A stretch of DNA of 64,000 bases. Source: Glaucostegus cemiculus (taxonomy: Eukaryota). Shown here piece after piece: positions 754-57,651 of this stretch. The stretch's first letter is position 1, and each line of letters starts with the position of its first letter. The notes under the pieces are model-generated. The model was not told the origin of the DNA. It was given only the letters and a program-made list of their open reading frames with translations, and searched no databases. Location of the stretch: assembly GCA_976551045.1 (NCBI GenBank), contig CDPCPM010000107.1, forward strand, positions 3,162,001 to 3,226,000. The letters are read 5' to 3'. Made by a program: the position numbers and the translations under genes.

Positions 754-2319
754 CTGTGTAATTGGTTAAAGAAATATCCAAAAACAAGTGGAAGTGAACA
801 TAACAAAAATCTCGTGCGATGCATAAAATGCCAGTTCTAACACCTGTATTTTTCTAACTGCCAAGCAGCAGAATATTTATACAACTGCAAGACTTTCTGT
901 TGAAGACTCTGTTCTCATCAAAATTTCACAACTTCTTAATAATTCTAAACGTAACAAGAAATTTAAAAAATAATTAACTGCATTCTGAAAACTTTTCATC
1001 ATGAATTTTGTGTTGACAATAGAAAGTCATCAATTTTAGTTACTGCCAGTGTCTCATCCAGTATAATGTGTTTTTGTACATTTAAATAGAAATAAATAAT
1101 TCATTCAGTTGAAGGAACAAACTCCGTAATAATGACAGATGGTGGAACAAAATTTACAAATTTTAAATTGCAATCTATTTGCCATTGTACCCTTTCACAG
1201 AAGTTAACCTATTTAAAAACATTCACCAGAATGCACAGGGAAATGGAACAAGCAAATTAAGGCAGAGAGCACAAAGCTCTGATATTGTTATTCTTTTATT
1301 ATACGTGATTATTGTGTAAGCAGTGCAGACCCAGGTGCAGAAATGTTCAGTAAGTCCTAGCCATACAATTTGAACAGAACTCTCACTGCAACATGCTATA
1401 AAACTTGGGATCAATCAAAACCATTTAAAATTAATTTAACATAAACACTTTGGAATACATCACTTTACTGCCGAACAGTTTTCAATTTCAGTGTGTCATA
1501 GTTAATAATCAGCACGTGCCAGACCTGCCACAAAATATTACTTAAGACTGGGAGCTTCAAGAACAAACTAAAAAACCCACACAAGAAATACACTCTGTCA
1601 AAAATCTGATTACATTATCTGCAATAAAACACCACTAAATTGCTTCCCTATGACCAGGGTAAAACTTGCAACTGCTGCAGTAATCAAAAACCAGTCAGCA
1701 ATAACTTAAAAGCGTGACAGAGTTCAACAACCTTCCAGCTGCCCTAATAGGACCCCTGCTTGTAGCTGCTTTTCATGACACACTGTGGAGAGCTTTAATT
1801 TTCTTCTTTGTGTAAAGTTTCACACTCTACAAAAGAGGTTGAAAACACAGTTATAAATCACATACAAAACGCAGGCCCTTGTAAAATTTGATGTTATCTT
1901 TAACACTCCTTAGAAAGTCAAGTTGATGTACCAATTTGGGAGTCCAAATGCAAATGCATAGAAGTACAGCATAAGAATAACCTGAAATGGAAAAAATAGT
2001 CAACTGTTACTTTTGGAAGTTTTAGTATAGCTTTCTGGCAAAATTAGATAAAGTACTGTTTAGATACATTAAAGTTTTCTTCAGGGATTGGGCTGGGAAG
2101 GGTGGGTGCTGCTTATAAAATCTAAAGTTATGTGTTTTCTGGAATAATGGAAGATAACAAGAAAGATTTAAACATAATAGAGTAAAAAAATAAGTTTACA
2201 AATTACTTAATCATATAGTGATGCTCTTTAAATGTAAAATTATTTTGCATGCTCACTATTTAGTCTGGAGTTGAAATATGGACCCTATGAGATTTATTGA
2301 TGGCCTTTCTACACAGACT

Positions 2320-3020
2320 CAAATTCTGATGACCCTAGTTAATGAATAGCCTGCTTAATTTGGTAAGACCAGAGGCACACATTTCTGTCAATTCTTTAGG
2401 GACCAACTGATGCCATTCACAAGTCATTAGATGTCGTCTTTTTCTGAAATGCATGCAGGCTGTTGCTGGGTCTTTCCACTCCATATTGCCACAGCAAGCC
2501 ACTGGCCTCGTCAACAGCAGGCTGTTGGGCTGGTGTGTCCTTCTGGCGAACAGGCGCTTTGACACTAAGCTGGCACGTGCTGGCGCAGCAGGAGCAGGCT
2601 TGGGCGTGACAAATTGTTGAAAGAGCTGAGCTAAAGTTGAGGCCGTGAGCCACCTGAGCCTCAGGCCCTCTATGGGCCTGTCATCAGTTGCCAATTCATT
2701 GCTTGGCCAATAGGCTGTAGTCAGCTTCTGGGCTCAGTTTAAACAAGGCAGAAACAATATATAGCTCTTTCAGGCGATGGCTAATAACACCCTGCTGTTT
2801 AATGAAAGGCCCTGCATAACTAACACATAAGAATACAATGCAGCACACAACAGCTAACAAAACAGAGACATTCACTAAATAATGTATGCAAAGACAGTAA
2901 GACCAGGGACTCCAAATTAACGTAGACCCAAATGATCTAGTACAATAGCCAGTTCGCTCATGAAGGCAGGCAGGCAGGCAGTAATGTGGACCGTGACAAC
3001 ATGCATCAAATCTGGAAGGA
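2320..3020. promoter_or_regulatory. Candidate conserved non-coding element / enhancer
   Basis: Repeat-free block, more GC-rich than its flanks and retaining CpGs. Contains several TGACA/TGTCA (TALE-homeodomain) sites, a palindromic GCACGTGC E-box, CCAAT and TAAT motifs. Conservation not tested. Confidence 0.45.
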
Positions 3021-4394
3021 AAAAGCAGGAACAATGATAGCATACTGCACATATATTAGGACTTTGCCCCAATGTATATTTTAACCCTTAACATGGCCAC
3101 TGCACTGTTTTTAATATAGCATTTTGTTGTTTATTCAAAATACCTTGGTACAAAACAGTAGCACAGTAAGTTTAATGCCCATGTTTGCAGATCTTATGTT
3201 GTGAGGCTGCAAATTAAAAAAACTAAATAAGCTGAAATCTAAATAAAGATTGGTTGCTTAAGACCAAAACTGCTGCTTCATTTATTAATAACATTGTCAG
3301 AAGTTGTGACATTTCCAATGTACATATTAAAACGATAACAAAAGGCCTTGATATTTATTAGTCTTTTAAAATTTTACACATAATTGCATCATGGTGTTTC
3401 TGTGGTTCGGCTTACTGTTTCTCCAGTATTGATTGTCTACATTAAACACAAATAGCTTTTTAAAAAGAGGAGACAGATTATCACAATCAAAGAGGAAGCA
3501 TAATTAACCAGTTAATGTTCACAATCATATGTAATGACTATATTTCAAGATGCTGCAGACATTTAGACACTAAATGTTTAGAATATTAATGATATTTGAT
3601 ATGTTAATTATCTTTCCTTATGATACTTAAATGAATTATAAATAAACAATAATTATCAAATAATGGATGAAAAAATTCCTTTACAATTCAATTAATTCCT
3701 TATGTTGCAGCTCGTAGGATAACAGGAATGGAAAAAGCACATCAAGTCCTTGTTGTCATAGTAACTGATGTCACTAAGAATGAGTCACTTTGAGAGCAAG
3801 TACATTAGCAAAGACCATAAACACACAGCCATGCAAAAAAAAAGCCACCGTAAGAAATACATCAAAAATATTACCTCAGCAAAGTGAAAAAGTACAGTTG
3901 TGGAAGCCATTAGGAACAGGATTTCTCTCCAGTCTCATTAAAAATTGAGTTCTCTCAAAAATGAGGCTACACAATAAAATAAATTAGGAAAGGACAAAAG
4001 GTAAATAAAGCCATATGGTCCCCCATTATCATAAATGCAGATAATTTCTACATGGTTGCTACTGAGATTGCTTGCCTAAATATTGACTAAAGTAAGAGCA
4101 GACATGATTTCCGTAGATAGGATACACCTACGCAGCAAAATTGTTTGCTTTAAGCCGAACAGTCTGCAACATTACTAACTAAGTAACAGTGAATAAATGT
4201 AACTGAAACAATACACACTGAAATGCAGTTTTTAAATAGTGTATTTGCCCAGCTGTTCCACAGAAAGCTACACCAAAAATATTTTCAACTTACTGACCTT
4301 TGTTTCTCAAGTAAATCAGAAAAGTAACTCTATTATGAGAACCCGACACTTTGCTATTCTACCTTCAATGATTCCAAATTGTATATCGGATGCT

Positions 4395-4640
4395 TTAACA
4401 CAGAAAGCATCAGGTTCAATTCCTGTTCCGTATTATATTGTCACAGCTGAGGTGGCCAAAAGGTTGCTATATATCAGATAGGAAGGGAAAAAACTAATCA
4501 GGCCTCATATTTGCTATGAAGTGACAAAGGACTCCTGCCTATTCTCTGCATGAGATGTTAGGTTTCAATCCATTAAGACACAAGATACTGATACAGAAAT
4601 TGGCAAAGGCTGGATAATATCAAAATCGCTTGGTTGAAAA
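4395..4640 (+). mobile_element. Old tRNA-derived SINE remnant
   Basis: B-box-like GGTTCAATTCC near 4412 in a tRNA-head-like context; the body is too decayed to assign. Confidence 0.3.
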
Positions 4641-5559
4641 CCAAGATTTATTATTGTGAACAAACTGCAACTAGGTAATTTCCACAGAAGCCATTCTCGT
4701 ACAGGACAGTTGACTTGCTGTGGACTTTATTATTTTATGAATGCGTAGCTGAATTATACTTTTTCCCCATATGTTATATGCTTTTTATCACGTCATTAAA
4801 CATAAAATGTAATAGCTTTGTGCTAGCAAAAACATTGAACTATGCTGAAGGCTTGTCAATCAAAGAACATTTGATATTGTAGTTAATACTCCACTTAATC
4901 TGGCAATTGATTACTGCAATAAAGACAAAATTCTGGACAATTTTCCAGCATCTGTAATCTTTTTTAATTTTCATGCATTTGCTGAAAACAGGATTACAGT
5001 AAATTTCAGGGCAATCTATCATTGTTATGGGAAATATAACTTCTGGATCAGAGGAATAAGGTCTGCTTATAGCATCCACTGTTAAACTATCAAAGAGCAA
5101 AAAGAGAAAATGAATATATACACAAAAAAAATCTAAACCTTTAATACCCTGCAAAGAATGGGTGCTCGGAAGAGGTACTTGAGGATACCTAGGCTATGCA
5201 GCAGCTGAGGCCTTCAGTGTAAGAGATTTGGAGGAAAAGGAGAAAAATAAACAAAAATAGTGCCTACCTATCATTTCCCAACTATCTAAAATTAGTATTC
5301 TTATTTTCCTATTAGCAGTCTGAAAATATGGTATTACCTCGAGTATTCAAAAATGTGCCTCAAAACATTTTAATTAGTTTTGAAATGTAGTCACTGTTAG
5401 ACCACAGGAAACATAGCAACCAGCTAAACCCCAGCCAGCTCTTACAAATAATAATGTGATAATGATCAGTCAATCTGTTGATTCTGGAATAAAAATTGAC
5501 CAGGATGCCAAGGATCCCATCCTTGATCTTCTTCAAATCGTCCTGTGTGGAAATTAACA

Positions 5560-5912
5560 GGTGGGCAGAGAAAAAAAAATTCAAGCATGTGTTCAAAACT
5601 TCTTTGAAGTGTAACATCTCCACTCACTCCTGGCAATCTCTGCCCTGTGACAACTCAGTAGGAGGAGGAACACTTGGGAGGGCGTGGAGAACCTCAAGGC
5701 CGTGCATCAGGACCCCACAGAAGTCATACATGGGCGGCAGGAGAAGTGCACCACCTTACAAACTCCCTACCTGCCTATGCTGTCAGCCACCTCCTGCCCC
5801 ATCTGTGAAAGAGCCTGTTTTGGCCACAGCAGCTTCCTCAACAACCCCCCCACCCCTCAAAAATTACAGTGAAAGTAAATCATCCTCAAACCCAAGAAAC
5901 TGCCTCATAGAA
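5560..5912 (+). mobile_element. RTE-clade LINE, 5'-truncated 3' end
   Basis: Translates (K)KKFKHVFKTSLK-CNISTHSWQSL..., later SCPICERAC, resembling the RTE ORF C-terminus (RKRFKDxLKxSLK...CxxC). Ends in GTGAAAGTAAATCATCCTC...AACTGCCT, shared with the copy ending at ~10608. Confidence 0.7.
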
Positions 5913-6194
5913 TTAGGAGACTCACCAAGAAGTTCCTACAAATAACATAACGATGATCAGATGATCAGTTGATTCAGGAATAAACATCGACTAGGATGCC
6001 AAGGATCCTACCATAATCATTTTCAGAACTGCGCTCACATAAGCAGCCAGCTGCTACATTTCCCACCCACCCCCACCCCTCCTTTAGGATATAAATGGTT
6101 CACCTACCAGCCAAATGTTACGTTAGTGATAACCTGAAGTCCCTGGAACCCAGCACTGTATCATGCACAAAATGATAAATACCTTGAGTGATGT

Positions 6195-6300
6195 AGACTA
6201 GGCCTAATGTTGCATCTGAAAGATGGTAACCTCAGTGTAGAAGTTCTTTAGAACTGCATTGGATGTCAACCAGAAATTTGAAACTGATAAATCGAACACC
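6195..6300 (-). mobile_element. Deu-domain SINE remnant (SacSINE1/AmnSINE1-like)
   Basis: CATCTGAAAGATGGTAAC...CAGTGTAG...ACTGCATTGGATGTCAACCAGA resembles the antisense Deu core as I recall it (CATCCGAAAGACGGCACC...CAGTGCAG...ACTGCACTGGAGTGTCAGCCTAGA). Confidence 0.45.
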
Positions 6301-9300
6301 AATAACGCTGAGATAAAGATAGTTCAGAAAACTATAGCAATGTATGCTTTTCCCATTTCGGTCTAATTTCACATTATGTAATTAAGCTTGAGACGGCTAA
6401 TGAATCTAATTCAGGCAAATTTGATATAACTATGACATAAAAATATATATTTCCTACTCAAAAGCTTTAACTGGGAAGGGTCATGGAATTTTCCTTGCCA
6501 TTAGCTAGCATTTTCACAACCAGTTGAGTCCCAGCTTCCAACTGGGGCATAGCAAATATTCTGCAATGATGCCCTTCGATAGGGACTGTTAACCAGTGCT
6601 ATTTGTTTGCATCTTTGATTAAATGGTTGCATAGCAATGTGCTAAATGCCAGTTTTCTTGTTCAATGAGTTCCAAATGGAGAATGAGAGGGTAAATTAAA
6701 ATCATCTATAAAATAGCCCTCATTTTGTGCTTTTATCAAATTTAGAAGAAGTGAATCAATAAGGTCTGTGATGTTACTGAATAATGAATTGCCAGCTAAT
6801 TTTAAAAAAGGCACTGATATTCTATTTATATCATCATCTACTGTTTCAAAATGTTTTGATATATCAAGGTAGTTTAGACTATTCATGGGCAGAGGTGATT
6901 CACTCAATTCTGTTTTACCTTTTTCTTCTTTTTCCACTGATGGCCTTAACAGCAAAATATAATTGAATGTTTGACAAAGCCTAATTTAAATATTTAGTTT
7001 CATATCATTTGGTGCATTGATATTTGAACCTTAACCATTAAGCTTTCAGTATCCTCTGAAAACAGTTTTAAACTACTGGAGCGACATCAAAATCCTCAAA
7101 AGGTTACAGGCAGGTCTTATAACTTTTAGAAATTTAGAGTCAGATGTTGTAGTCTGGCAGGGAGAATAGGAGCTGTGATGATGCAGGAGCGAGCACTCAT
7201 ATCAGTTAGACCCATTTGCAAACAAGTTCTTCAGAAATACATTTGTTTCCTTATGTACCACATCTGCTTAAATAAAGCCATATACACCTATTCAGAGTAG
7301 GTAAGGAAGAAACTCTTAACTGTCCATTTATTGCTGATATGGATTTTTAATAGTGAGAACAAACAAATGCACTAATCTTAATAAAGGACTTCGTCATTTT
7401 GCTTCTTCAATGTTATCGAAAGATCTCCTTAAATGCATGCTTCAGTTGGGACTTTCATTAAGAAATGCCCTCAAATTTGAAGACAGGGCAGTTCTTCCAT
7501 AATTTAGTATTTTTTAATGATATCAATTTTTCCAGCATTATAATTTTGGTAACAAAGAAAACATTTTTTTCATTTAAATGTATAACAGTATGATCTTTTG
7601 CTACATGTAAATATTAAACAATTGCATAATTGTAGAGGAAATACTTGTTTGTTAAACATTTAGCCTGGTAATTCACTAAACTGTCCTTTGAATATCAAAC
7701 CAAAATTGCTTTATAGATGCAGAGAACTTCCTTTGGAACACGTTAAAAACATACTTGGTCAACCCACTTTGTTTTGCACATTTAACTTTACAGCTTCTAA
7801 CAGCTGTAATTTTATTAATATACAGAAATGGAGAAGGCAGCAGCATTAACTCAGCTGCAACAAGCTCTATTAAAGACTGAACTGCTGGCACAGGTATATC
7901 CCAGGAACCATAGCTCATTAACTTGTGGAGTTTCTACAGCTGTCAGTTGGAATGCCAGTGAAGTTCAGAAGTGTAGAACCTTGGGATTCTGCTCAAGTAA
8001 TACAGGCTCTCAGGTTCAACTTGAGTGAACTCAGATTGGAAATTCTTTGGGAGTTACTTTCTGCTTCTTCCACTTCTAGGTTTTCCTGTAGTAAGTCATG
8101 GGAGATGTAAAGTATGTCTACTCATATCTGGAGAGATGTGTTGTATTAAATTGCTTAAACAAATCAATCAACATTACTTTCCGCTGTTTGCGCAATGTAA
8201 TAATAGATATCACAGATGTCCAACACTGTTTTTGGTGGCCATTAGACAAGTTATATTAACTTGCAATTACTTTATTACTTAGCCTGCAGAACTTCACACA
8301 GTTTCAAAAGAACTATCAAGTACTTTGGGGAGAAATACATCATCCTGCACCTCCACTAGGTGGGCAGCTCAGAAGGCGGCAAAACAACCTTCTGGAAAAT
8401 GGCCTGGATTTTCAATTTGTAAAAGCAAATAACAAAGCTGTCAGTGTTCACTGACATTATACCATCAGATTGTCTGTAACTACTGGATGATTAGCATGTG
8501 TAGTCAAAGATAGTAGTCAGAAGATACTGTTAGTGATTCCCTGCTCCTTCACAGATTACATTGTTTGCTAGCCTTCTCCAATAGTAATCCTGAGAATTTA
8601 CATATATTTAACAATTATTCTCCCTTAAAATACACAGAATATGTTATGTTTGTTAATTGTTATGCCATAGAAATAGAATTTTATTTCTCTTTGGAGCTAA
8701 AAGAAATGTGTGTGTATATATTATACACACACACACAGGATTATAATTCTCTCAGACAAGTACAGAAGTTTAAAAATCTTCATGATATTTCACCTACTAC
8801 ACTTATATTAACCTACAAGTTCAATCCACATTTTGCATTTGGTTAAAAACATATTTTAGTTCCCAATTTGTCATGTCTGTGAACTATGACATTTCGTCAA
8901 AATGACTGGCAGCTCGGATAGTTTGATGACATGGTTGGTAGACAACAGAGATCCCCTAGAATTTATATTTGACATCAAATAATGTTGGAAAAGGGGAAAT
9001 CCACACAACATTGTTGGATCTTTGCGGGCAGCTTTCTTTGAGATTAGATTGAGCACACTGACCTCATGGTTGACTAAAATCCAAGCTATAACTTTCAGAT
9101 CTTGGCTCATAAAGCTGTAGTGGCCAAGAGCATCTTCTTGCGACAGAAGGGCATACAGTTCTACTACAGGATCTTCTTTTCAGCACTAAGCATGCAATTT
9201 TATGAAGATTCAAGTTGCCAGATAGCAGGGATTTGTACTTGATAATGATTATTTAGGGACCTACTTTTTCAAAGACTGATAGCAGTTTGTTGTCCAGCCT

Positions 9301-9559
9301 TGATTGAGAGTTGTCAGTTTCATGCTTTTCAATGCTATCTTTATGTTTGTGAATTTAAAGATCAGCATTATATTCAGCTAATCATATGTTCTAATATATT
9401 TAAAAAACAAGTGTAATACTGATAGAAAATTAAATGCGAGGGCAAACAGATGAATTGAGGATGATGATAAAGAAGAAATGGGAGGATATGGAGAAAAGGG
9501 CAAGTGAGCTAAATAATGCTTAGTATTTTAGGTGAGGTATGTGGACTGCAACCCTGAAA

Positions 9560-10140
9560 ACAGTGGAAATCAGTTTGGGAAGTGGCACTGACCTGAGGCA
9601 GTGTGGGCATGGGTTTTACTCCAAATATCTAAAGGTCAGTCGACTGCAGAGGAATGGGGCAGTAGAGGTTGGATGTTAGTTCCAATTAGACCCCAAAGAA
9701 GACAGTTGATGCAAAGGCACAATGAAATGACTGGTGCATTGAGAGGCCCGTGTTCAGTATCAAGGTACATGGAAAGTTGTGCAGGAATTTACGTAAAAGT
9801 TGATGCTCTCCCTGTTCCACATTCACTCACTGGCAGATCCAAATGAAATGAAGGGTCTTATTGCTGATATCATCACTCCCACTGCAGCACAGGAACACCC
9901 AATATCTCCATGCTGCAATAGAAGCGCAGACTGATGCCATGCTGGCTGCACCTCACACCATCTTGAAGGTGGATTACAGCAATGCAAAAGCAGCTTGCAG
10001 CGTGTCATAACATTCCAAAAATTTGCCCTCTGATAGAGCATCAGGATTGTTGAGGCATCACACAGCAGCAATGATCCCATGACATACAGACCAGTTGTTC
10101 TCTCTCAGTAACTGCAAAATGGTGAAAAATCAGAGGTCAT
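9560..10140 (+). mobile_element. Possible decayed PIF/Harbinger fragment
   Basis: ORF 9601-9846 contains GWMLVPIRP...QRHNE, weakly similar to the Harbinger transposase WLMTPLRxP...RYNEAH segment. Otherwise highly degenerate. Confidence 0.3.
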
Positions 10141-11610: not shown

Positions 11611-11649
11611 CTCAGAAATTCATCTCAATCCTACATCAGTTACACGTTG

Positions 11650-18820: not shown

Positions 18821-18864
18821 AGAATGTTGTTGAACAGCAGGGGTTAGGCAAAGCACACAATGCT

Positions 18865-24896: not shown

Positions 24897-25784
24897 ATTA
24901 TGTCGCCTGTAATGTTCAGCATAACATCCCTGGTTTTCTATTCAATGCCTCTATTTGGAAAGCTCAAGATTTCATTTATTTCTTTAACCACTCTCTCAAT
25001 ACACCCCACCACCCTCAAAGATCTCTGCGCACAACCTCCATATCCTTTTGACCCTGCACAGTCTACATCCTTTCTGCCAAAATGCATCATATCTACGGTA
25101 AATTCTATCTGCAACTAGTTTCCATCCAGCAGCTGGTTTGTGTTCTGTGGCAGTCGACTTGCATCACCCTCCGTTTATCACATATCCAAATTTAGTATCA
25201 TCAACAAATTTTGAAGCTTAGTAATCTTCCATTTTTGTATAATCAAAACCAACCAGTGGGGAAGACCACCGTTTATCATCCTCCTGTCTGAAAGACAAAT
25301 ATTTTTTATAATGATTTGCTGTTTTACATTAAATCATTTTTCTTATCCAAGCTGATACTGATCCCCTTACATCTTGATGCTCAATTTTTCCCCAGGTTCT
25401 TTGCAAATATTTCCCTAACATCCATGTAGACAGCATCCACTGCATTCCACACATCAATATTCTGTAACTGCAAACAAATCTTTGAATGAAGTAAGTCACT
25501 ATTTGCCTTACATAGATTTGTGCAGGCTCTCGTTCATTATCTCAAGCTTCTCTGAGCATGCAAGAATATTTTTCGTCCCGTTTATAATTTCAATAACCTT
25601 ATTCACCACTGATGTTAAACTATTTTGCCTGCAATTATTAGGAATTTCTTTAAACCCTTTCCTGAATGTAAGCTGCCGCTGGCTCTCCATTTTTATAGAA
25701 GATTATGGCAATCAATCTGAGATACAAACCATGAGATCAGGTAACTTGTCCACTCTAAAGCATGGCCAGTTTTTCCAGTACATC

Positions 25785-26751
25785 ATTGAACATAGAACAG
25801 TACAACATAATACAGGCCCTTCGGCCCACAATGTTGTGCTGACCTTTAAACCTTGCCTAAGACTACCTAACCCCTTCCTCCCACATATCCACTGTCCACT
25901 CCATCTATTCCTCCTAATATTTTGTACACCTTTATCATGTCTCCTCTCATCCTCCTTCTCTCCAAAGAGTAAAGCCCTAGCTCCCTTAGTCTCTCCTCAT
26001 AATCCATACTCTCTAAACCAGGCAGCATCCTAGTAAATCTCCTATGCACCCTTTCCAACACTTCCACATCCTTCCTATAATGAGGTGACCAGAACTGGAC
26101 ACAGTACTCTAAGTGTGGTCTAACCAGAGTTTTATAGAGCTGCAGCATTACCTCACGACTCTTAAACTCGATCCTTCGACTTATGAAAGCTAACACCCCA
26201 TAAGCTTTCTTAACTACCCTATCCATCTGTGAGCTAACTTTCAGGGCTCTGTGGATGTGAACCCCCAGATCCCTCTGCTCCTTCACGCTGCCAAGAATCT
26301 TGCCAGTAACTTTGTACTCTGCCTTGAAGTTTGTCCTTCCAAAGTGTACTGCCTCAAACTTCTCCTGATTGAACTCCATCTGCCACTCTCAGCCTAGCTC
26401 TGCATCCTATCAATGTCCCTCTGCAATCTTCGACAATCCTCCACACTATCCACAACACCACACCAACCTTTGTGCCACCTGCAAACTATCCAACCCACCC
26501 TTCTACCCCCTCATTCAAGTCATTAATAAAAGTCAAGAAAAGCAGAGGTCACAGGACCAATCCTTGTGGGACACCACTAGTCACAGCCCTCCAATCTGAA
26601 TACACTCCCTCCACCACAACCCTCTGCTTTCTACAGGAAAACCAATTCTGAATCCACATGGCCAAGCTTCACTGGATCCCATGCCCTCTGAACTTCTGAA
26701 GAAACCTACCCCGTGGAACCTTGTCAAATGCCTTACTAAAATCCATGTAGC
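25785..26751 (-). mobile_element. Younger CR1 LINE, 5'-truncated (RT C-terminus and 3' tail), nested in the old CR1
   Basis: ORF 25867-26379 MEFNQEK...EQRDLGV...LYKTLVRPHLEYCVQFWSP...LERRRMRGD is a classic CR1 ORF2 C-terminus. Tail GTGGGCCGAAGGGCCTGT...TTCTATG. Flanking TACATC at 25779-25784 and 26752-26757 is a candidate target-site duplication (TSD). Confidence 0.95.
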
Positions 26752-28765
26752 TACATCCTGCTTATCATTTTTCACCCCACCCATTACATCCTAAGCCCAG
26801 CTTTTACTGATACTGAACACCAATACTAAATACTCATCAAGCATTCTAGCCTCATCCTGTACATGTAATCATACCTTTGTCTGCAACAAATCCTACTCTG
26901 CCTCATGCTATCTATTCATTATTTACATGGTGGTGAAAAATCTTTGGGTTCCCTTTAACTGTCATTCCACTCTCAAGTTCTCTCTTTACAAGTCTTACTC
27001 TCTTCTTCATTGCCATTCTCAATTGAGTTTGATCTGGCTTTTGCTTGATAAATTCCCTGACACACATGAAACACTTTTTTCCTTCATTATATCGTCTATT
27101 TCTCCTCAGCATCCAAGGAACCCTGACTTTGGTTCTTCCAGCTGTTCCTCATGAAATGTTTTCAGCCTATACCTGAGACACCTCCTTCCATTCCAGCTTT
27201 TTTGATCTCATTTTACTGTGGCTAAATCCTCCCTCAGCCCACTGAAATAAGCCCTCCTTCAGTTTAGAAATTCTCCTTTTAAGTTGTTCCTTGTTCTCAC
27301 CGATGTTAATCTAAGCATGAATGATCCCTTTTATCCAAGTGTTTTTCCATAGAAACTTGGCCAAACTCATATCCACCACTGATCCACCACCGCCCCCTAT
27401 GTTGGTGGTCAATGAAATTATGAACAGATTTTGGAAATTCTTCCCCATGTTTCCCATAGTTACACAAATATCATTTTGGAATAAAAGTCCCCTTATATGG
27501 CCACTCTAGACTTCTTCTACATCTCTACAACTTGCCTACAGATTTATACCTATAACTTTGTCTTACTATTTGAAGGCCAATAAAATATCCCCAAATAGCA
27601 TGATCAAATCTCTTTGGCTTCTCAACCGTAACTCAATGGATTCTGTCCTTGTTCCCACAATACACCCTCTTTCCAACGCTGCAAACTCTTCCCTAATCAG
27701 GACTGCCACCTCACCACCCCTTCTTCTGTTTTTAATCTTTTCTGGGTGCACTGAATCCATGAACGCCTACCACCCATTTTTGTATCATAATCTCACAGGG
27801 CTATCCATACCTGCAGCTCATCAACCTGATTTATTTGTGCATTTATTTACTTGTCCTTTGACAGAATCAGTGAATAAACTTACAATATGTTTTTTACTGC
27901 ATGCAGAATAATCTTAAAATTTAACTTGCCTGCTCCACTGATCAACTTTGCTCCATTCTGTGGAGATGATTATCAACACTTTTTTTCCCCCTTTTAGTTC
28001 CTCCTGTCCCATTTGGATCTGGTGACCTTCTAAGCAACTATATGAATTCCTTACTCTTCCCTTTCCTCTATTGACTCACAGAGAAAAATGTAAATAAACT
28101 TTCAGTAATTTCTTTTAATCATTTTTATAGTTAATTATTTTCCTTCATTCCATTTTAGCTTGGGCACAAATATTTCCCAGTTTATTGCTTTTAGTAAAGG
28201 TATTCTGAACTATTTACCATCTAAGTTACAAATAACCATCTTAAACTAGATGACAGTGGCTTAGATAAATATTCTTATGTCTAACAGTTATCTGCTATGA
28301 GCTAAATCATCAAATATTGGCAGGCAATATTTTAAAACATTGATACTGGAATAAATGAACAATATTACAAATCAAGATACAAAATGCAAGAAAAGGCCAT
28401 GCGCTCTCCAAAGCCTATAAATACCTCTGCTGGACCTATTACATCTATTTGGTTCCTCAGCATCTGAAACAAGAATAGCACCAACAATATTTGTCATAGG
28501 TTGCTTGGTTAACGTACCCAAAACTCACAGTAGCACAGGGAATTCTAAGAGTTCAACTGACTCTCAAGTCAGGCTGTGTTAAGGGAGTTATCCAAGAGAC
28601 CTACAAGGTACAACTACTTAGCAAGAGGAGGCTACACCAACTGAATCCATCTGTTGGCACTAGCAAGCATCTTCAAAGATAGAGGAGAGGCATTTTCCAA
28701 TAGATTCTGTAAACTCTCAATGCCATTAACAAAAGTATTCCCCATAACTTGCTGGTAAGTGAAGT

Positions 28766-29027: not shown

Positions 29028-30949
29028 ATTACCACTGAGTGTAGCTTACTGGCAAAAGAATCGAAGGGGAATTGATGAGCATATCGAAAGAGATTATTTT
29101 GCAGGAGAGCAAGGAAGGAAGGAAGGAGAAAGGGAATAGGACTTACTGAGATTGCTCAGTAAGCTGATATGGCCTCCTCATGTATTGCTATGAGGGAATA
29201 GAACAAATGGCTTGCTGTTTGACCTCAACTGAAATCATGCAGTTTCAAAAAGTGTTAACTCCTACATCAGTTTCAACATCAGCAGAGTCTATAACAATTT
29301 CAATTGATATGCAGGATTTTTTTTTTTGATTTATCAAGGGAACTTCCACAACTAAAATAAAAAACAAAAATGCTGAAATAGTGTGTCAACATCTGAAAAC
29401 AGTAAAGATAGCATTACTATTTTTGGTGAAATTCCTTTCCCAAGCATTAAAAGGTGGGATAGCAGCTTATCTTTTATGTTGCCTCAGATAAGATTCTGGC
29501 TGCTGTGTAAAGATCATTTTTGATTGATCTACTTCCTGAACTGTCTGAAAGAGGGGTTGAAATTGCCAGAACAAATCTGGGTCAATGAATATGTCTTGGG
29601 GTCAAAGCTTTCAGACTTTCAATCATCTTTTGTTGTTGCTTTTAACATTCTCATCCAAATTGCCATATTGGCACTGTTGCTTCTCCTTCAGAAGTATGGT
29701 TGTGTTCGGATCATATACAAACTGACCAATAAAACCTTCAGAGCAAACTTCAAATAGGTTATCACCCATTCAGGATTTATCCCCTTTTCTGCAGAAAAGG
29801 AAGAATTCAAACAGTAGAATTCAGATGAAGTTCCATTTGTTATCTGTCAGAACATCTGATCAGCCTATCTCTTTCACCATCTCTTCTACAATCTCTAGTC
29901 CCATGGCATTAAACATTCACGGTATAATTCTGGACATTCCTAATACAGCCAACTTCTCTCATAAAAATTTATTTTCTTCCAGATATGAATACACTTGCAT
30001 TTATTTGGTGCCTCACATGATTTCAAGATGTCTCAAATGTTTATTGGCCAATGAGATACTTTTTATGTTATGTTACTAATGTATCCTAGGAAATGATGTT
30101 GTCAAATTGCAAATGCCAATAACAGGAACGAGTTTTTTTTAAAAGAGAGGTTTCACTTGAAGGAGACATGCTGACGAAGACATTTGAAAAACACTTCTTC
30201 ATACTACATACTGATGTTTGGGGTCCATGTAACCAATATGGCTTGTTTTTTTTGGCTTTATCCCTAGTCCCCCAAGTTATGTGTGTGTTTTTTTGGCTTT
30301 ATTTATTTGTTTTAAAAATAAATTGATTACAACTTCAAAACTTAAATTAAGACACTGTCCTCTGCATTCACCGTGATCTATATGGTTACATTGCTCTAAT
30401 GACACAGTCACCCACTGGCTCCCTCACTTTCCCACAATGACCAATGATGCTGACTGAATTGTTTGAGGAATGAGAAACCCTGTAGAGCAGGAATCTCCAA
30501 TAAGTGAAGCAAAATTAAATTTGCAAACCTCTCTTGTAGTAGTTTGAAGATTTGTTAACATAATCAATTTGACATCATCTGAAGACATAATAAAATAAAA
30601 TGTCTGTGTGTCCCACACATTAGTCAGCAATGAAACAAGTGAGAAATCAGAACTTCAGCATGTAGTTTACACTCTTGGTTTTTTCCTTAAAGTCCTCATG
30701 GGAGGCCTCCCCCATAGCCCAAAGGGGGCCTAATTTCCCCCAATAAAAACCAATATATGTGAACACATTTGACAGGTGATCCATCTGTGAGAGATTTTGT
30801 TTGCTTTGGACTTATTCAGTTTAGGAAATGGGGAAAATAAACATGAAGACTCAACAGGAATGATTTGGACAAAAAAACTTGGGCCAAATTGCTACATCAC
30901 TTTGTGATCTGATGTAAGCCTATTTCCCCAAATGCCACTCAACACTATT

Positions 30950-34448: not shown

Positions 34449-35025
34449 TTTTATTATTACTTTCATGCCTGCATCACGTCACCAAGTAGCAAAAGCAAAA
34501 AGATTATATACCATAAGAAAATCAGACGCTACTAGACTAAAATCTGAGTGTTGTTGTTGATATCTACAACCCTGTTTGAGCTTTAGAATTATGTTTAAAA
34601 TGTCATCAGAACTTTTCAGCTGAATTACTAGCAGCCACCTGTTCTATTTTCAATTTAAGAAGGCTCCTATTATTATATAGGAAGAATAGTTCTGTCATTC
34701 TGTGGAACATTCCAGTGCAGGCTACTAATTCTATTTGCTGCAGTTTAAAAGGAAGCTGTAATTGAATTTCAATGTCAAAGTAAAAACTATGGAAGTTGAG
34801 ATGCGTTAGTTAAAATTAAGTCAACTTTTTCCAGCATCAACATAACTGAGCAGTGTATTTATTTGTCTATTGTTCTTTTACACTGAATGATCAGGACGCA
34901 GGATCAGGACAAGAGAGCCCACATGGGTTCTTAAGATTTTATGAGGAACATTACCAAATTAAATCTAAATGTTAAAGTGAGACAATACAAACATGAAAAT
35001 TTTGTAGTATTGTAGAACGAATCAT

Positions 35026-35123
35026 GGGGAAGGGAGTAGTGGGGAAGGGAGTAGTGGGGAAGGGAGTAGTGGGGAAGGGAGTAGTGGGGAAGGGAGTAGT
35101 GGGGAAGGGAGTAGTGGGGAAGG
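35026..35123 (+). repeat. Perfect 15-bp minisatellite (GGGGAAGGGAGTAGT) x6.5
   Basis: Six identical units plus an 8-bp partial unit, read directly from the sequence. Confidence 0.98.
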
Positions 35124-38590: not shown

Positions 38591-40339
38591 TCAGCATTTA
38601 CTTTTCAGAAGGCAGTAGCATAATTATAAGCAGGTTTTTTGTTAAAATAATTTTCTTCACTGTTTCAATAATACAGGATGTCTTAACTGACAACTTATAG
38701 ACACGAGTACAGAATATTGAAGAAATTCTAGAAAGGAACTTCCAACCAATTGAAATTGACAATTTGTTCATGTTCACTTTTAATTTAAAATAAATGATAA
38801 AAGCATCTCCCTTCCATTGTCTGAAGACTGGCACATCATTTAATACATTTGGATATTGTATCCAACACAACCAGTAATGCAATAAGCACCAGAGCAATAC
38901 AGCTAGTAGTATTCGCTTCATACACAATCATCCAAACAGAATTTTCAGATTATTCACAAAAGAGATCTGCTTCCTTTATTGTATACATGTAACAATGGTA
39001 TAGCTGTCAGAGGGGTGCAGTAATTAGCAGATGGGATCTGCAATCAACTTTGTATGAACTGTTCAATCAGGGATAATTAGAGTAAAATGCCAGGACTTTA
39101 TTGCCTCATGTTGAAATCAAAAGGGCGTATGATATATGGAAGATTTGGAAGTATCACATTATACCTGAACTGACTATAGTGGCACACATGAGCAAAATAA
39201 AAAGGACGGAAGGAATGAAAGGCAACTTGCACATTTGCAACAGCCTTCTAATCCTTGCCCCAAGCCATACTGTGCAGTCAGGCTGTCTATTACAAGGCAA
39301 CAATTAGGCGGCCTAAGCAGAACACCTGGTACTCACAATCCTGAGCCTTCTGTGGCAGCTGACTGCAAACAACTCCCTGCAAGTGGTTGTGGCTCTCAAC
39401 ACTTGCTTGCCAGTCTGGAGATGATAAAGACCATTTTTCCTGCTCATGCTGCTTATAAAGCTATTTATCATATACACAATTTAAAAAAATCTTTTTTTCT
39501 CCCAGATTTACAAAAATTTCCTTCATGCAACTACCTAACAAAATGTATTCTCATATCTTTGTAATGAAGCATGTACCAATGTTTGTTTTGGAACAAACTT
39601 TAACAAAATCTGATTGTTAGAAGTGGACATCAAAGGAGTATTTGTGTTAAAATGATGATCATATTTTCACAGCAAACTTAAAGAACCTTGCTGTTACATT
39701 TCCAACTCTGGTGGAAGCTTTTACCTTCAACTACTTTGTATCTTCAAATTGCAAAGGGGTGTATCCCAGATGCTTATGCCATGATATTTATGTTGAGTCA
39801 CTGTTATCTCAGCCTATGAATTTACAATTTCTATTATGGATAACTTTTTACAACCTGCACAAACAGTAACCAATGTTGCTGCCATTTTCACAATTATATG
39901 CTATGTTTTTTTAAATATATACAATGGTTATAAATCATTGCATTCTTTACTCTGTTTTCTCTTCAGTCATATATTTTAATAGAGGTTAACCAAATTGCCT
40001 CAGCATGTTATACTAACTGATGAACTGTAAAATCAGTCCAGAATGTCCAATGAAAAATCCTCCCCATGTGCAGCTAGCACTTTTCTGTACCTCAAAATAA
40101 TAGGCAGTATTTCTGAATGGGAAAAAAGAGAAAGGGAAGATATCATTAGCACTTCAAAGCCCATCTTCCTGTAAGGTTAAAAAATGCATGATGCAGACTT
40201 TAATCTTTCTGAAAATCTATGCACAGATTGAGCAGAAATGCATTTTTCACATGAATGCTAATACATTCTAAGAGGACAGCCTTTTTACTGCAGAAGGCAG
40301 GGAATGTGATAGAGACCAAACACATTATCATGGCCTTTG

Positions 40340-47790: not shown

Positions 47791-47924
47791 TGAGTGGATG
47801 TGGAAAGCAATAGGATTTGAAGGTCATGTGATATGCATGAGTTAAGGCACCCAGACCCAGATTTTTCAGCATTGAGCCATAACTCCAGATAAACTGCAGA
47901 AACACACTGCTGTACTTTGTTAGT

Positions 47925-50119: not shown

Positions 50120-50520
50120 AGTGTCAGAGAGTCAGAGTCACATTGCATAGAAACAGGCCCTTTAGCTTACCAGGTCCCTTCAGACCATCATGTATCATTT
50201 TATATGAATCCCATTTACCAGTACATGGCTCATAGCCTTTTATGCCTTGATGACTCAAGTGCTTATCCAGGTACTTTTCAAATGTTGTGAGAGTACCTGG
50301 CTCTGCCATCCAAGCAGTGCATTCCAGATTACAACAAAACTCAGATTGCAAAAGCTGCTTCTCAGATTTCCTCAGAACCTCATGCCGCTTACCCCAACTG
50401 TATGCTCTGTAGTTTTAGACATTGCTGCGATGGGGAAAAGTTTCATGATATCTATCCTATCTCTGCCCCTCATGATTTTGTATACCTCTTAGATCTCAGC
50501 CTCCTCTGGTCCAAGGGGAA
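50120..50520 (-). mobile_element. CR1 LINE 3' end fragment
   Basis: ORF 50124-50351 has AEPGTLTTFEKYLDKHL...GIKGY (CR1 ORF2 end: EAxTLxxFKxxLD), followed by a GGGCCTGTTTCTATGC tail. Confidence 0.8.
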
Positions 50521-50974
50521 AAATTCAGGGAATATGAAAGATGACATATTAGCCACTCCAATCAAATAAATGGTCCACTTGATCCCACATTCTGATAGTC
50601 TTCAAGAGTTATACATTAGCAGTGTAAGCAATGTGCCACCTAAAACAGGCATACAGCTGCTTTAATAAGCAAACCAGCTTCCCATCAACAATTGTAAGGA
50701 ATCTACTGCAAAGATTGAGCCCCAATTAGTTGAAGCTTGTGCCTTGCTTTCTTCCCATAGTAGAGGGACCTTAGTTGCTCTAACCAGTAATCCTTAGAGT
50801 TATCATAAAATACTGCTCAGAAGAGTTATGTTTTAGTGGAGTACGTCCTGCCCTTGAATAATGTGGGTTGGTGTTGGCTTCTGCTCTCCCACAGCCAGCA
50901 CCCTCACATTCAACTTCTCCTCCCATCACTGAGCTTTGCCCAAGGTCTCTATCCATCACACTGGTACCTCACTC

Positions 50975-51320
50975 CAGTGGGATAGTGCAGCTAGCAGAGC
51001 TGCTGCCTCCTAGCACCAGTGACCTGGATTCAATCCTGATCTCAGGTTCTGTCTGCATGGAGTTTTCATTTTCTCTGCACAACCATGCGGGTATCATCCA
51101 GATATTCAGGTTTCCTCTTACATCCCAAAGATGTGCAGGTTGGTGGGTCAATTGCCAAATCTAAACAGCCCTAAGTGTAGAGGTAAATGGTAGAATCTGA
51201 GAGGAGTCCATGTAAATGCAGAGAGAATAGGTTACAGGAAAGATGATTGGGAGAATGGGATTGCTCTGTGAGCTGGCATGGACTCAATGGGATGAATGAC
51301 CTTTTTCTATGTTGTAAGAA
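50975..51320 (+). mobile_element. Older tRNA-derived V-SINE with CR1-like tail
   Basis: TAGTGCAGCTAG (A box), GGATTCAATCCTGA (B box), GTCTGCATGGAGTTT...GGTTTCCTCTTACATCCCAAAGA (V-domain), and tail GACTCAATGGGATGAATGACCT..TTCTATGTTGTAA. Confidence 0.75.
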
Positions 51321-51469
51321 AACATGGAAAGTTGCACCAACTTTCCATTTGTCACATACAGTTTAACACTTTACACTCAAATTAAGCTTAATGCTGAATT
51401 TGGCTTGAGGCTCAGGCACTAATCAGTTTTGGCCACAAGTCAATTTTTAGCTGCAACAGTTCAAAAATG

Positions 51470-52340
51470 TGAAATCAGAATCTTTCGAAAAAGCTGTAAA
51501 CTATTGCTGAATGAACATAAATCATGATGTTTGCAGCATAATGTGGAATGCTTTCTGTGACTAACCAAGAAAAAAAAGACAAGCAGATGCCCACTGAGAT
51601 GAATAAGTAAGAAAAAAAATGGAAAACTACCTTGCCTGGCTTTCCATACTATTCTCTGAATTGTACCACTCATAACATTCAAACAAAGCTGAACAAAATC
51701 AATAGGCCAAGAACACAGTGACATGTGCTTGATCACAAACATTTGCATCTCATGACAATGCTTCTTCCAAGATGGCACACGTGATCACACCTTACTGAAC
51801 TCATCCCTATATTGCTCCTCCTTTTTTCTCTGTGGAGTGCTGCACTGCATTTCACTTTGGGATACATATCACTGTTGCCCATAAAATTCACTACCAGGTA
51901 TATGCACCTACTGACTTCAACATGTTTAAAGACTTGAGTCAGACCTACTCCAAGTCTACAACTCACCACTGTATCTAAATCCCAAGGCACAAACTTCATC
52001 TTCATGAACTATGAACATGTATATCATTCTTTCTGTTATTCTCTAGATCTAAATTTTTCTTTTTGTAATGTACAAATCAAAGAATATTATGGCCTCAGCA
52101 AAGTCTTATATAACACTGCTATTGTGGATTTACTTTTATATTGATCAATTATGACCATATAACCTGGAATGCTACTCTTTGACCACAGCTGCCTTACAAT
52201 GGCCACTCCCAAGCCTCTCTTCATCCCTGCCACCTTTAAATTGCATATAACCAAACTTTATGCCCTGGGTACAAAACAGACAGTATCTGCAATATAAGAT
52301 ATTTGGAAGTCTTTCATTTTGTTTTTAATTATTAAATCTG
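51470..52340 (+). mobile_element. Decayed L2-like LINE region
   Basis: Pyrimidine-rich degenerate sequence with fragments resembling L2 3' coding/UTR. The assignment is tentative. Confidence 0.35.
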
Positions 52341-54759
52341 CTAAGATCCATCTGTGATCTGCCTTCTTCTACAGCCCCGATTCTACCACACAGTTTCTTG
52401 TCACATGAATTAGTCTATGCCCTGCACCAAATGCTGTTAACTCCACTGGAATGTAGTATTTACGATACATTTCATCAATGGAATCTTTGGCCAATTTGCA
52501 CCATTTCTTACAATATCCCTCTTGATACCATGGAATGCAATTTCAGCACAGTTCCCTTTTAGTTGAAACCCAAAGAGTGGCATCAACAAGATCTCTCCAA
52601 TCTATTGCTTTAGCAACTTCAAAAAAATCTGGATTGTACATTATCCAAAGCTGTGCTGAGTTTTCAATATCAAGCACAAGCAGTCTAAAGTAATCTTCAG
52701 TAGCATCCATGCTTTACAATCATTTCCCAAAATAGAATGAATTTAGTCCTGGTGTTTTTATAACAGCTTTTATTTGATAGAACAACTTCTGCTTGAGCTG
52801 AGGAATATGTTTAAGCAGATAGGAAGGGGTATGAAGAACGTAAGCTCAAGGTTAGGGTTCCTCACACCCATGTGAGGAGTCATGTCATGCCCACATGAGT
52901 ACCTTAAGTCTTACTGGTGCTTCTCTCAAATTCAAAGTGTCTTGAAACTGCTTGATAATAATGTAGTCATTTTAAGAAAAAGAAATATCTATCACACAAG
53001 TTAAAAATCAAATCATGAAGTTTAATGTCTGCCTAAAATGCCAAAAAAATTATTGCTCTCAGATTCAGACTTGCTGGCAGGTTATCAATAACTCAAGCTT
53101 CTGAACATGAAAGTACAGAGGTATACATTATGCACATTCCAATATGCAGAGGAATGTGTGTGCCAGCAAGAAAACATCTTGACGTCTCCCTATAATTTTT
53201 TTTCTGAATTCCAGATTTGGATATAAAGAAAGGCAAATTATGCATAAATGTCACAGATAAAAATCATACAGGATGAAGTACATCTTCCAACAGCAGGTCA
53301 AACTAATTGGACAATCTTTGTTAAATATTTAAATATTTTCTGTCCAGATTCAAATTTCATGACATTAGGTATAAATGCTTTCAGTTAGGTTAATGTATTA
53401 TCAAATTAAAAATGCCAATGCTAAAAAAATGGTGCGACTACAAAATAAGGCAACTTATTCATTCAAACTGGAAGGAATTTATGCCTTTAGCTATGAATTT
53501 ATTTCAATGAACACATAAAAAGAATTCCCAAATCAATTTTAGGCTCCACTTTATGTACATAAAAATGTGCAAATCCTTCTATTACTGTTTTTTCACACTG
53601 AGGGAGCAGGTGATTTGCTACTCATCTTTTACCACTGATAAGCAGCAGGAGTTGAACAACAAGGACCACGTGGTAATGATTTATCCAATTTCTTCCTACC
53701 TTTCCCTGAAAGGGAAAATAGTACATTACATTTCTTCCAGTATTATGCAATTGAAAATTTACTCCCCACGCCTTCCCACCACCACACCCCCCGCTCCAAC
53801 CAATCCCACTCTGCTAAATGTGAAGTACAATAATGACCATTTCCAGGTCGATTCACGTATTCCACAAAATTTGATCAGACAATTCCCATGTCAGTTATTA
53901 CTGTGATCCTGGCATGATTTCCACATCAGAGACAAGGGGAAGACATCATTCTATGCTCCTTTGGCTCCCATTACGCGAGCAAATTACTTGCATTCAACCT
54001 TTGGGCACTTCTTCCACACTGAACTTATTCTGCCCAAATCTTCAGGCTTCTGCCCAACCCCACAAACCACCCCAATAAAAAGTGCCAGTCTGTCTAAGCC
54101 TTGTATTCCCCCATGTGGTTGCCTTCCCATTCCGTCCACTCCAGAAACCACATGCCAATCTTCTCACAATCCAGCCTCATTTCCAAACACCAACTTCTGG
54201 TCTTCTGATCCCAATTACTGTACCAAACCCCCAACTAAATATTGGGCTCCGATACTTCCCACATATCATGCCTGGCCATAAAACAATCTCAAGTGGGTCT
54301 GTGGCCAATGCCTACATGAACCTGGCCTCAGGAGCACCAAGAGTACCATGCAGCAAATTTTCAGTGAAGGTAACTCAAGTTTTCAGTAAACCAATAATGA
54401 CCAAAATGATTGCTGCCAGTTTGCTGCCATTTCATTCTAGTGCATCCCAATTTCTAGGTAATAGCATTTTCTATGTAGATAGGTTAACATTAAAAGTACA
54501 TTTCAAGTTAAGTAGATAAAATTTTATGATATTAATCAGTTGCAGGCCATCCCCACGTTACATACACCCCTACATACAAGTGAGTTCCCATAACATTAAA
54601 TTCAAAAGTCTGCGTATGTACATATGTTCATTCCTACAAACTGCAGGTATCTTTCTCTCTTTCTACCCCCCTACTTTTAGTAATTATTCTTTCTTATTAG
54701 TTTTATATGCTTTTGATGCCATTCATTACAATACTGTGGAGGTATGGTTACCAAAGAAT

Positions 54760-55200
54760 GAATTTTGTGCATTTTCCAACTTACGCACAAAATCGACTTA
54801 GGGACATCTGTAAATAATGGAACCCGTTCGTTCCCGGAGGTAGCCTGCAACCGGATTATCCAAAATGGATACAGATTGTGTGTTCTGGCTCTTCTGTGGG
54901 ACTGGCTGCAGAATTTAATGTTTTCCGATGGTTGTTGCCAAACACTGCACCTACTTTCCTACTATAATCGTTCAGACGCATAAGTATTGCCCCTGGGGAT
55001 TGAATCTCAAGCCTTTGCTTCAGGAACAAAGGGAGATGCATTCCCTGATGGACCTTGCTCTCTGATGGCAGTACATAGTAAATGCCGTTCAGCAGACTGT
55101 GACAGCATGTGGCTGCACTTGTGTCTGTTGTGGGACCTGTAACTGGAATTTGCTAATGCTATTTCTTTCACAGCAGCTTTATTCTAATTCATATCTTTGT
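54760..55200. promoter_or_regulatory. Candidate conserved non-coding element
   Basis: Local CpG excess, CATCTG E-box next to TGTAAATA (forkhead), and TGACAG and CACTTG (NKX2-type) motifs; no repeat similarity recognised. Confidence 0.4.
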
Positions 55201-56479
55201 GTATGGCTGAAGAGAGGGTCACAACATGAAAGTTCAAAAGTGAAGTCTAATTAGATGAGATTGAACAAAAGTAGCAACATTGATTCCATCTTAACTTTTA
55301 TATAAAAAGGTGTTATCTCAAACAAGCTAAAATGAACTTTTCTGAAAAACAAACTTAATGGTAACAGTCTCACTGGTATACTAATCATACTGTAAGTCAA
55401 ATGACATGCTACTTCTAAACCTTTCTAAATACAGCCTGTGTTAATTGAAAGATCATATTGTAAGCTATAACAATAAAATATGTCAAAGAACAATTCCAGA
55501 TGAAAAATGAAACTCCTTCAATTACAAGTGAGCTAGAACATATTTTGTGTAGGATGTTCCAGTAAATGCTTTAGATTTCTATTTTACTACTTTAATTTCT
55601 TTGTCTTTTGTTGTTTTTACAGCACATTTCTACTTCCACAGAACCTTGAAAAAGCAGATGAATTCAATATAACCATTCAATCTAGTACGAATATTTCAAG
55701 AACTATTGATGGATTAATGTTTCTCCCCATTCTAGGATACAAGGAGCAATTCTTTTATATTGCAGCTCATCAATGGTAGAATCATTCTATTACTGATTCT
55801 ACTGCCAATGTTATAAACTTGGCACAGCAGATTTTTAAAGTTTCTTTTATGCCATAATTGTGGTAAATTACAGAAGGTTGAAAATGTAACAGAGACATCT
55901 GCACTGGATGCAAAATTTAAACTGGAAAAGATATTGCACAAGTAAACAGGTGATTTAGTGGCACTCTGGCAGTGTACAGCCCATAAAAATATATTATTTT
56001 TGAAAGGCCAACACATGCACATATAGACATAAAGCTGCCAATCAACTTCAAGTGATTAAAAAGAAAAGACAATTATCTCAGTTCTATGCAAATCATTAAA
56101 AATAAATGTCACTATGATTATCTAGAATGTGGAGTTATACCTTATTCAGAGTAGTATAAAAGGGGAAATAAAGAACATTACAATTTCTGCACAGAAAGTC
56201 CTATCTTCTTGATACTGTTGTGATGCTAATTATTGAAATGGATTAGTTGGGAGATGTTGTCAATAATGTTCATTGTACATGAAGACTTGTGTTTCCCTCC
56301 CCCCCCCATAAGACAACTATTTTTATTGCCAGGAAGAGAATCAAAGTTCAAACTTGTACACAGACATATTCAAATGGTACATCAAATAACAAGTTATTTC
56401 TTTTACAAGAAGATTATATTTAATACAACTTAGTAAAATATTACATTGATTTAGCCACTGCAAATCTAAATGTGCATTC

Positions 56480-56930
56480 TCCGCTCAATTCCTTTTTACA
56501 AATGAATCCTTCTGGTGTTAGCCTCGACAATAAACAGAAAACAGATCGCTTTGCCCATAATTTTAACAGTGGTAGACTTTTTGCCCAAATGACTGCAATG
56601 CATACTCTAGGCTAAACAAAGAGCAGTGAACATTTAAGTTGCTGTGGTAACACATCCTTCGATATTGTCCTTCACTCAGCTGTAGTATTCATTGTAGGCT
56701 TTGTGTCTTATCAGATTTCTTCTGCAACCTGCTGGCTGCAGAGTCTAACCTTTTTTCTTCTACCTCTCTCCAATTGAGATGCAAATTAATCTCCTCTGTT
56801 GATTAAATTCTCCTTAATCTAACTGTCAAGTGCAGATGTAATCAGAGTTTACAGTTCTTGCAATAAGAACTGTCACAACGAGGGAGTGTTTTTTGTTTGC
56901 AGATGAATTATGAAAAGGGCAAGATAGGCA
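56480..56930. promoter_or_regulatory. Candidate conserved non-coding element about 1 kb from the U12 donor
   Basis: Contains ATGCAAATTAAT (octamer plus homeodomain), TGTCAAGTG (TALE plus NKX2), CAGATG twice, TAAACA forkhead sites and CTTATC. Confidence 0.45.
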
Positions 56931-57651
56931 TTTTCCTCAACTTTACAGTATCTACAGCTTATGTAACATGCAAAAAATTGTCCTATAAATATAGTGTACA
57001 GGTATTATTTAATTTGCTGAGCTAAAGTTCTTAATTTGGAATTTTAATAGGCAGAATGAGCATAAATTATTGCTTCTTCATACTCTGCACTGAAAACACA
57101 CTAAATAAAGTAGCCAGCGGGATGTTCAAGAAAAACTGTGCAGCAATGCAACAGTGCTTCATAGTACCAACATGTAAAATTACCTTTATCTTTTAACAAA
57201 GGCAGTTCACTAACTCCCATTCATTAACAAGGAAATGAAATTCATTGAAACTCAGGAGAACACAATGAAAGTTGACCTCAACAAAATAATGCAAACTTCG
57301 GCCATTTCTTCCACTACGAATACCACCTCAGGATGATTTCCCATTCAAATCAGCAAACAGAGCTAACAAATGCAAACTTTACAATACCAAACACAAGCTC
57401 CTCTTATATTTGTCCCCTTCTTAGAGCCATCATGGGATGCAAGGTATTGTTGCTAAGCTATACGTTTCTGAATATGCCATACTTAACATGAGAATTAAAT
57501 CCAAAATCTATTCAAGTCCCAACAGAACAGTTCACATATAATGAACGAATATTGACAGGAACATGACATTACTCAACCAATAAGTTTACAGAAATCAAAA
57601 CAAACCTTAACGAAGTCCACACCACATTGTATTAGAAGAAAAAAAGGATAC

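Follow-up and report, generated by a model that had tools for sequence, protein, structure and literature searches.

Introns of the major (U2-type) spliceosome nested within introns of the minor (U12-type) spliceosome form a known class, with prospero, SRSF10 and NCBP2 as examples (review PMC8329584). A long U12-type intron is likewise on record in RALGAPA2: Table S3 of Cologne 2019 (PMC6800510) gives 60,680 bp in human (hg19 chr20:20392793-20453472), and Olthof 2019 (PMC6717393) gives 54,435 bp in mouse. Counted by eye in the former table, 8 of 846 human U12 introns are longer (CCDC171, DIAPH2, EIF4G3, FHIT, KIAA1328, SLC9A9, STXBP5L and UBE2H). Here we describe the batoid orthologue of this intron in Glaucostegus cemiculus, within a stretch of 64,000 nucleotides that we call the window (NCBI GenBank assembly GCA_976551045.1, contig CDPCPM010000107.1, positions 3,162,001 to 3,226,000 of the forward strand). 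With orthologues already catalogued in human and mouse, the ray intron is neither new as an intron nor uniquely long. Joined directly in the main mRNA, it contains a nested U2-type donor that probably lets the major spliceosome bypass the U12 route and splice to acceptors inside the intron. Such a twintron-like bypass, to which the sequence assigns defined coordinates and which finds support in relatives, is likely what this locus adds.

The RALGAPA2 intron belongs to the U12 class

The intron, its signals and the two flanking exons lie at the following positions of the window:

754..57651, minus strand: U12-type GT-AG intron of RALGAPA2, 56,898 bp, longer than any other intron found in the coding part of RALGAPA2
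57643..57651, minus strand: U12 5' splice site GTATCCTTT, first intron base 57651, directly after the upstream exon end at 57652
765..773 (773-765), minus strand: U12 branch site TTCTTTAAC, one mismatch to TTCCTTAAC
754..756, minus strand: CAG 3' splice site lacking a pyrimidine tract, AG ending at 754
57652..57779, minus strand: upstream RALGAPA2 exon, 128 nt, coding for the final strands and helix D of the RapGAP-type domain, ending in phase 2
632..753, minus strand: downstream RALGAPA2 exon (YEER exon), 122 nt, with a U2 donor at 631

The donor at 57651 is the sole exact RTATCCTTT, the 5' signal of U12 introns of the GT-AG kind, on the minus strand of the window. The motif GTATCCTTT alone is not rare, occurring 17 times in 1.73 Mb with both strands counted; at 57651 it coincides precisely with the exon end set by homology. 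The second A of the branch site is 12 nt from the end of the CAG, inside the 10-20 nt that, together with a missing pyrimidine tract, mark a U12 acceptor. We built a U2 matrix from 26 other RALGAPA2 introns of this gene (one misplaced boundary was kept in), under which the gene's own sites have leave-one-out medians of ~7.2 bits for donors and ~7.3 bits for acceptors. Under this matrix, the U12 donor scores -2.5 bits and the acceptor 1.5 bits, the latter ranking 910 among the 3622 AGs of the intron. [quoted passage not shown] RNA contig X1 (10,421 nt) carries the upstream exon, identical letter for letter to the window, although its source organism may be a close relative. On one side it continues directly into 753-720, with 30 of 30 letters of the loose end matching, and on the other into the previous exon. 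The sites 57652 and 753 are therefore joined in mRNA, and no constitutive exon lies inside 754..57651. A sequence-only reading of the window had proposed the gene, the U12 class, the coordinates, the consensus donor, a branch site about 12 nt from a CAG acceptor without a pyrimidine tract and the QSF/YEER join, with the 57652-753 junction as a check, and all of these hold.

Two weak AG/RTATC and two AG/GTRAG matches, not above expectation, were all that a search of the intron for U12 recursive sites returned, and Rfam gave no match within the window at gathering scores. Further along the gene on the minus strand lie a 40-nt stop exon (DLNI; L016, C107:3143026) and the last exon (L019, C107:3117275), which turns coding once the stop exon is skipped; both C-termini are present across vertebrates.

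A U2-type donor and acceptors are nested in the intron

Inside the U12 intron we located one donor and two acceptors of the U2 type, the acceptors each with an adjoining segment:

57600..57608, minus strand: nested U2-type donor AAG/GTTTGT, 46 nt into the U12 intron with 57605 as first intron base, matching the donor implied by two stingray models
40035..40133, minus strand: U2-type acceptor (AG ends at 40113; 8.9 bits) followed by a single-copy segment whose homologue is the terminal exon of Hemitrygon akajei isoform X2
30389..30500, minus strand: second U2-type acceptor (AG ends at 30480; 4.7 bits) followed by a segment whose homologue is the terminal exon of Hypanus sabinus isoform X2

With 57605, 40113 and 30480, the intron holds the U2 donor and acceptor within a U12 intron that characterize a twintron. 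At 7.2 bits, the donor is the best GT in the first 400 nt and ranks 66 of 3253 in the whole intron. The pairing is drawn from related species. Of 73 listed chondrichthyan proteins (one cluster being represented by 15 of its 25 members), the canonical join is present in 60, while 11 end before reaching it and 2 continue past the U12 donor. The two are the RefSeq isoforms X2 of H. akajei and H. sabinus (XP_072907480.1 and XP_059842260.1). They have their first 16 read-through residues in common, matching 57631-57605, and then diverge. Searched against 864 kb, the best matches of the two tails both fall inside the intron on the correct strand, at 40111-40035 and 30478-30389, each beginning one base after an AG. 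These matches score 46.9 and 32.9 bits, compared with maxima of 31.2 and 29.9 bits after shuffling (40 shuffles each), the second being the weaker case. The segment 40035-40111 is well conserved with a stingray. The reading frame of the window is off by one base from the stingray models, giving stops after 22 or 39 residues. The donor is common to batoids; the acceptors and products are not. When the Hemitrygon tail was compared with full-length cluster representatives no candidate emerged, a weak test in that isoforms sit inside clusters.

We consider it likely that the nested route is used at some level in this species. Where U11 fails to take the U12 donor, U1 would take 57605 and pair it with 40113 or 30480, and translation would stop after 22 or 39 non-conserved residues. 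The bypass transcripts would then encode a truncated, probably inactive protein or enter nonsense-mediated decay. In RNA run X11, strand depth in the bin 57463-57613 is 0.3, a value that either one unspliced read or five reads stopping at the nested donor could produce, and we do not use it as evidence.

Two further sites were noted nearby. An acceptor-like site at 40183-40169 (minus strand), with TTTAAC near its AG, lies 56 nt upstream of the acceptor at 40113; it scores 7.8 bits as a U2 site and fails a one-mismatch U12 branch filter. In the preceding intron, an alternative exon at 63103-63023 (minus strand) runs for 26 codons to a stop and is 74% identical to the isoform X2 tail in two sharks (Cetorhinus and Carcharodon; E 2e-17). 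This candidate conserved poison or terminal exon would truncate the GTPase-activating protein (GAP) domain earlier.

Bypass would remove the end of the GAP domain

The Pfam Rap_GAP domain reaches six residues past the junction. Among 150 distant homologues, 115 extend the alignment past it by 20 residues or more, and all 130 that cover the YEER arginine have it. This invariant arginine presumably corresponds to R1743 of TSC2, which is consistent with alignment end points only and goes without mention in a preprint on TSC. A structure model built with a 60-sequence alignment (predicted local distance difference test score 89.5) places two predicted helices in the downstream exon, at model residues 272-287 and 293-301. 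The model aligns to the human RalGAP2 cryogenic electron microscopy chain 9QWP up to residue 1863 (Z 31.9, root-mean-square deviation 6.5, 265 aligned) and to TSC2 up to 1755-1762. The isolated TSC2 GAP structure aligns only as far as the junction region, and the catalytic asparagine lies upstream of the junction (PMC12311180), so that the GAP core can fold without the helices of this exon. The bypass route would remove two conserved helices and the invariant arginine from the end of the GAP domain, and loss of GAP activity on removal of the YEER exon is likely.

Read-through models recur across vertebrates

Computed models from two turtles, the wrentit and several bats have 23-25 read-through codons in common and then diverge to different exons. 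Some tetrapod bypass models join the stop exon or the last exon, skipping the YEER exon, and a bullfrog model and one further protein leave the read-through after 5 codons. The implied nested donor is offset by +46 nt in batoids, by about 66-73 nt in the turtle, bird and bat models and by about +14 nt in frog. The search for read-through was deliberately selective, so that these models give no frequency. We considered a conserved read-through peptide and rejected it, as the tails differ between lineages.

Read evidence is at hand for mouse. In PMC6717393, RNA-seq gives a cryptic exon in the intron in the three tissues, out of 11, that pass the filter, with an index of 0.68 in testis, 0.34 in heart and 0.32 in thymus; the category includes an intronic first or last exon. 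According to the same source, no alternative event is commoner around minor introns than the use of cryptic 5' and 3' sites; longer minor introns have more of these and less retention.

The human and mouse RALGAPA2 introns resemble the ray intron in position (after LYQS), U12 GT-AG class and length, a comparison proposed in the sequence-only reading, and mouse also has an intronic alternative exon. The donors differ: batoids have the full consensus GTATCCTTT, and mammalian RALGAPA2 has GTATCTTTT, with a U12 donor score of 75-81 against 96-97 in the paralog (PMC6717393). That paralog, RALGAPA1, likewise carries a U12 donor in the equivalent position, so that the intron is probably older than the RALGAPA1/RALGAPA2 duplication. 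The RALGAPA1 intron measures 16,759 bp in the batoid genome, and is listed at 21,382 bp in human (PMC6800510) and 27,825 bp in mouse (PMC6717393). It shares position and class with the RALGAPA2 intron, is the longest intron found in its gene here and adjoins INSM2. It differs in its length here (16.8 kb), in its degenerate batoid branch site and in having no alternative event in the mouse/human table; at this intron (L006, acceptor C120:8016587) the consensus donor is kept and the branch site reads ATACTTAAT.

Elsewhere in RALGAPA2, the donor GTATCTTAT (L034, C107:3321843, minus strand) is U12-like and paired with a U2-like acceptor. A second mouse Ralgapa2 minor intron of 25,708 bp, catalogued in PMC6717393, was not matched to any batoid intron.

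Human data point to dependence of the orthologue on U4atac. In Olthof 2021 (PMC8034651), its retention index is 0.23-1.0 in three patients with Roifman (RNU4ATAC) syndrome against 0.11-0.14 in three controls, the control values being at or below the study median of 14-16%. The dependence is seen in two studies, with an effect size that differs between them. Beyond table rows, our literature searches returned no paper on the RALGAPA2 minor intron, although subscription journals or supplements may hold a description, and RALGAPA2 is unmentioned in the main text of PMC12956336.

Compared with U12/U2 twintrons, RALGAPA2 is alike in nesting a U2 donor and acceptor in a U12 intron, with the major route leading to a truncated or unproductive product. 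It is unlike them in that its nested acceptors lie 17-27 kb inside the intron and vary between species, and in that any regulatory role is putative. Table 1 of PMC3564746 lists 18 human twintrons and does not include RALGAPA2.

The intron is repeat-poor and lies beside INSM1

The intron had been described in the sequence-only reading as full of repeats, which is wrong. Repeats cover 8.9% of the U12 intron, 26.2% of intron 1, 27.8% of the rest of the gene and 10.4% of the stretch toward INSM1; all are lower bounds, obtained with a local 864-kb library. The cover of the intron is below that of all 350 overlapping same-size windows upstream, and a comparison of 11 with 49 five-kb bins gives a Mann-Whitney p of 0.0005. 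The repeat-poor block extends from the intron to the neighbouring INSM1, and the depletion is specific to the intron and the side toward INSM1. This gene begins 62 kb past the end of the window, and the paralogous gene pair has the same layout:

L021:7932, plus strand: INSM1-like single-exon frame, 442 aa, SNAG-type start, convergent with RALGAPA2
L008:9674, minus strand: INSM2-like single-exon frame, 483 aa, SNAG-type start, convergent with RALGAPA1

We take the two frames to be INSM1 and INSM2 on the basis of motif and synteny. Genomic regulatory blocks hold developmental regulators together with bystander genes. The locus has two features of such a block, synteny with a developmental regulator in both paralogs and repeat depletion, and we lean slightly towards the intron carrying INSM1 regulatory content. 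The intron would then stay long owing to a repeat-poor block likely carrying INSM1 regulatory DNA, and not through length-controlled splicing. A published human INSM1 super-enhancer in RALGAPA2 offers a parallel, in that a long repeat-poor intron stands beside a developmental transcription-factor gene and synteny is kept in both paralogs. It differs in its distance from INSM1, and the regulatory content of the ray intron is putative. The published enhancer probably lies in another RALGAPA2 intron.

Of the repeats themselves, the largest in the intron (25774-26759) contains a 170-codon frame resembling a reverse-transcriptase fragment, which we assume to belong to a long interspersed nuclear element family. 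The window has two small tandem arrays, one of them a perfect 15-bp G-rich array of 6.6 copies at 35025-35123.

Weighing the bypass against other explanations

Several observations weigh against the bypass and the regulatory content that we favour. The top 2% of intronic GTs reach the strength of the nested donor, and the occurrence of one close to the 5' end comes near to what chance would give. The nested route appears in only 2 of the 73 listed chondrichthyan proteins, and 60 of the 62 that reach the junction use the canonical join. The acceptors differ between the two stingrays, and the window is one base off from them in frame, so there is no conserved product; their isoforms are, moreover, computed gene models. 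No read with the nested route occurs among the listed loose ends of the RNA data for this species. In the mammals, the table with the mouse event (PMC6717393) has no human event passing the filter and lacks the paralog, and PMC6800510 puts human retention at 0 in controls and 0.017 in patients, with a mean over U12 introns of 27.5%. As to INSM1, no non-coding block is common to the RALGAPA1 and RALGAPA2 introns, only exons being matched, and the human super-enhancer (bioRxiv 10.1101/2021.04.14.439685) is more than 180 kb from INSM1.

The nearest competitor is an ordinary constitutive U12 intron, in which the nested sites arose by chance, noise or annotation artefacts account for the isoform models and intron length scales with genome size. 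The prevalence of the canonical join in chondrichthyans suits it, as do the zero control retention in one study and intron 1, which at 54,207 bp is almost as long. So does the correlation of U12 intron length with genome size reported in Moyer 2020 (PMC7367187), which weakens any argument from length alone. Against it stand the same donor in two independent stingray models, the mouse reads supporting an intronic exon in three tissues and the confinement of repeat depletion to the intron and the INSM1 side, and we consider it doubtful.

A conserved U12/U2 competition switch, in which selection keeps the nested donor and each tissue's level of active RalGAP alpha-2 is set by minor-spliceosome activity, as for SRSF10 and NCBP2, we judge unlikely. 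Bypass models in five vertebrate groups, the similar donor offset in turtle, bird and bat, the strong tissue differences in mouse, the weakened mammalian U12 donor and the conservation of 40035-40111 with stingray all speak for it. However, the offset varies from batoids (+46) through amniotes (about +70) to frog (about +14), neither acceptors nor products recur between lineages, and no human event passes the filter. Cryptic sites are also common around minor introns, more so in longer ones, which speaks for a recurrent leak rather than a selected switch. The bypass is most likely a leak that recurs, at levels differing between tissues, and a selected regulatory switch is improbable. Also improbable is the widest form of the idea, an undescribed, vertebrate-wide U12/U2 switch in RALGAPA2, whose U2 donor just within the U12 intron would send transcripts to intronic exons or beyond the YEER exon. 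Minor-spliceosome activity would thereby tune the amount of active RalGAP tumour suppressor by tissue, and INSM1 enhancers would have kept the intron at 55-60 kb ever since sharks and mammals split.

The sequence-only reading had seen the intron as a control point for full-length versus truncated protein: a switch gains from the competing U2 donor 46 nt downstream, but the slow removal of a long intron does not stand, as longer minor introns are less retained (PMC6717393). That sheer length slows U12 removal, so that retention or intronic termination truncates the protein, is very unlikely: a read-through stop after 26 codons followed by AATAAA/ATTAAA hexamers, a retention index of 0.11-0.14 in human control blood cells and several database models ending in read-through agree with it, but such hexamers are frequent in AT-rich DNA, retained minor introns are the shorter ones, control retention does not exceed the study median and intronic read depth is near zero in three raw RNA runs.

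We return to a probable leaky bypass of a long U12 intron through a nested U2 donor. Taken alone, the intron is ordinary, a catalogued minor intron in one more vertebrate, and the bypass is the point of interest. The similar length of the intron in ray, mouse and human and the repeat depletion toward INSM1 mark it as a place to seek old INSM1 enhancers. [quoted passage not shown]

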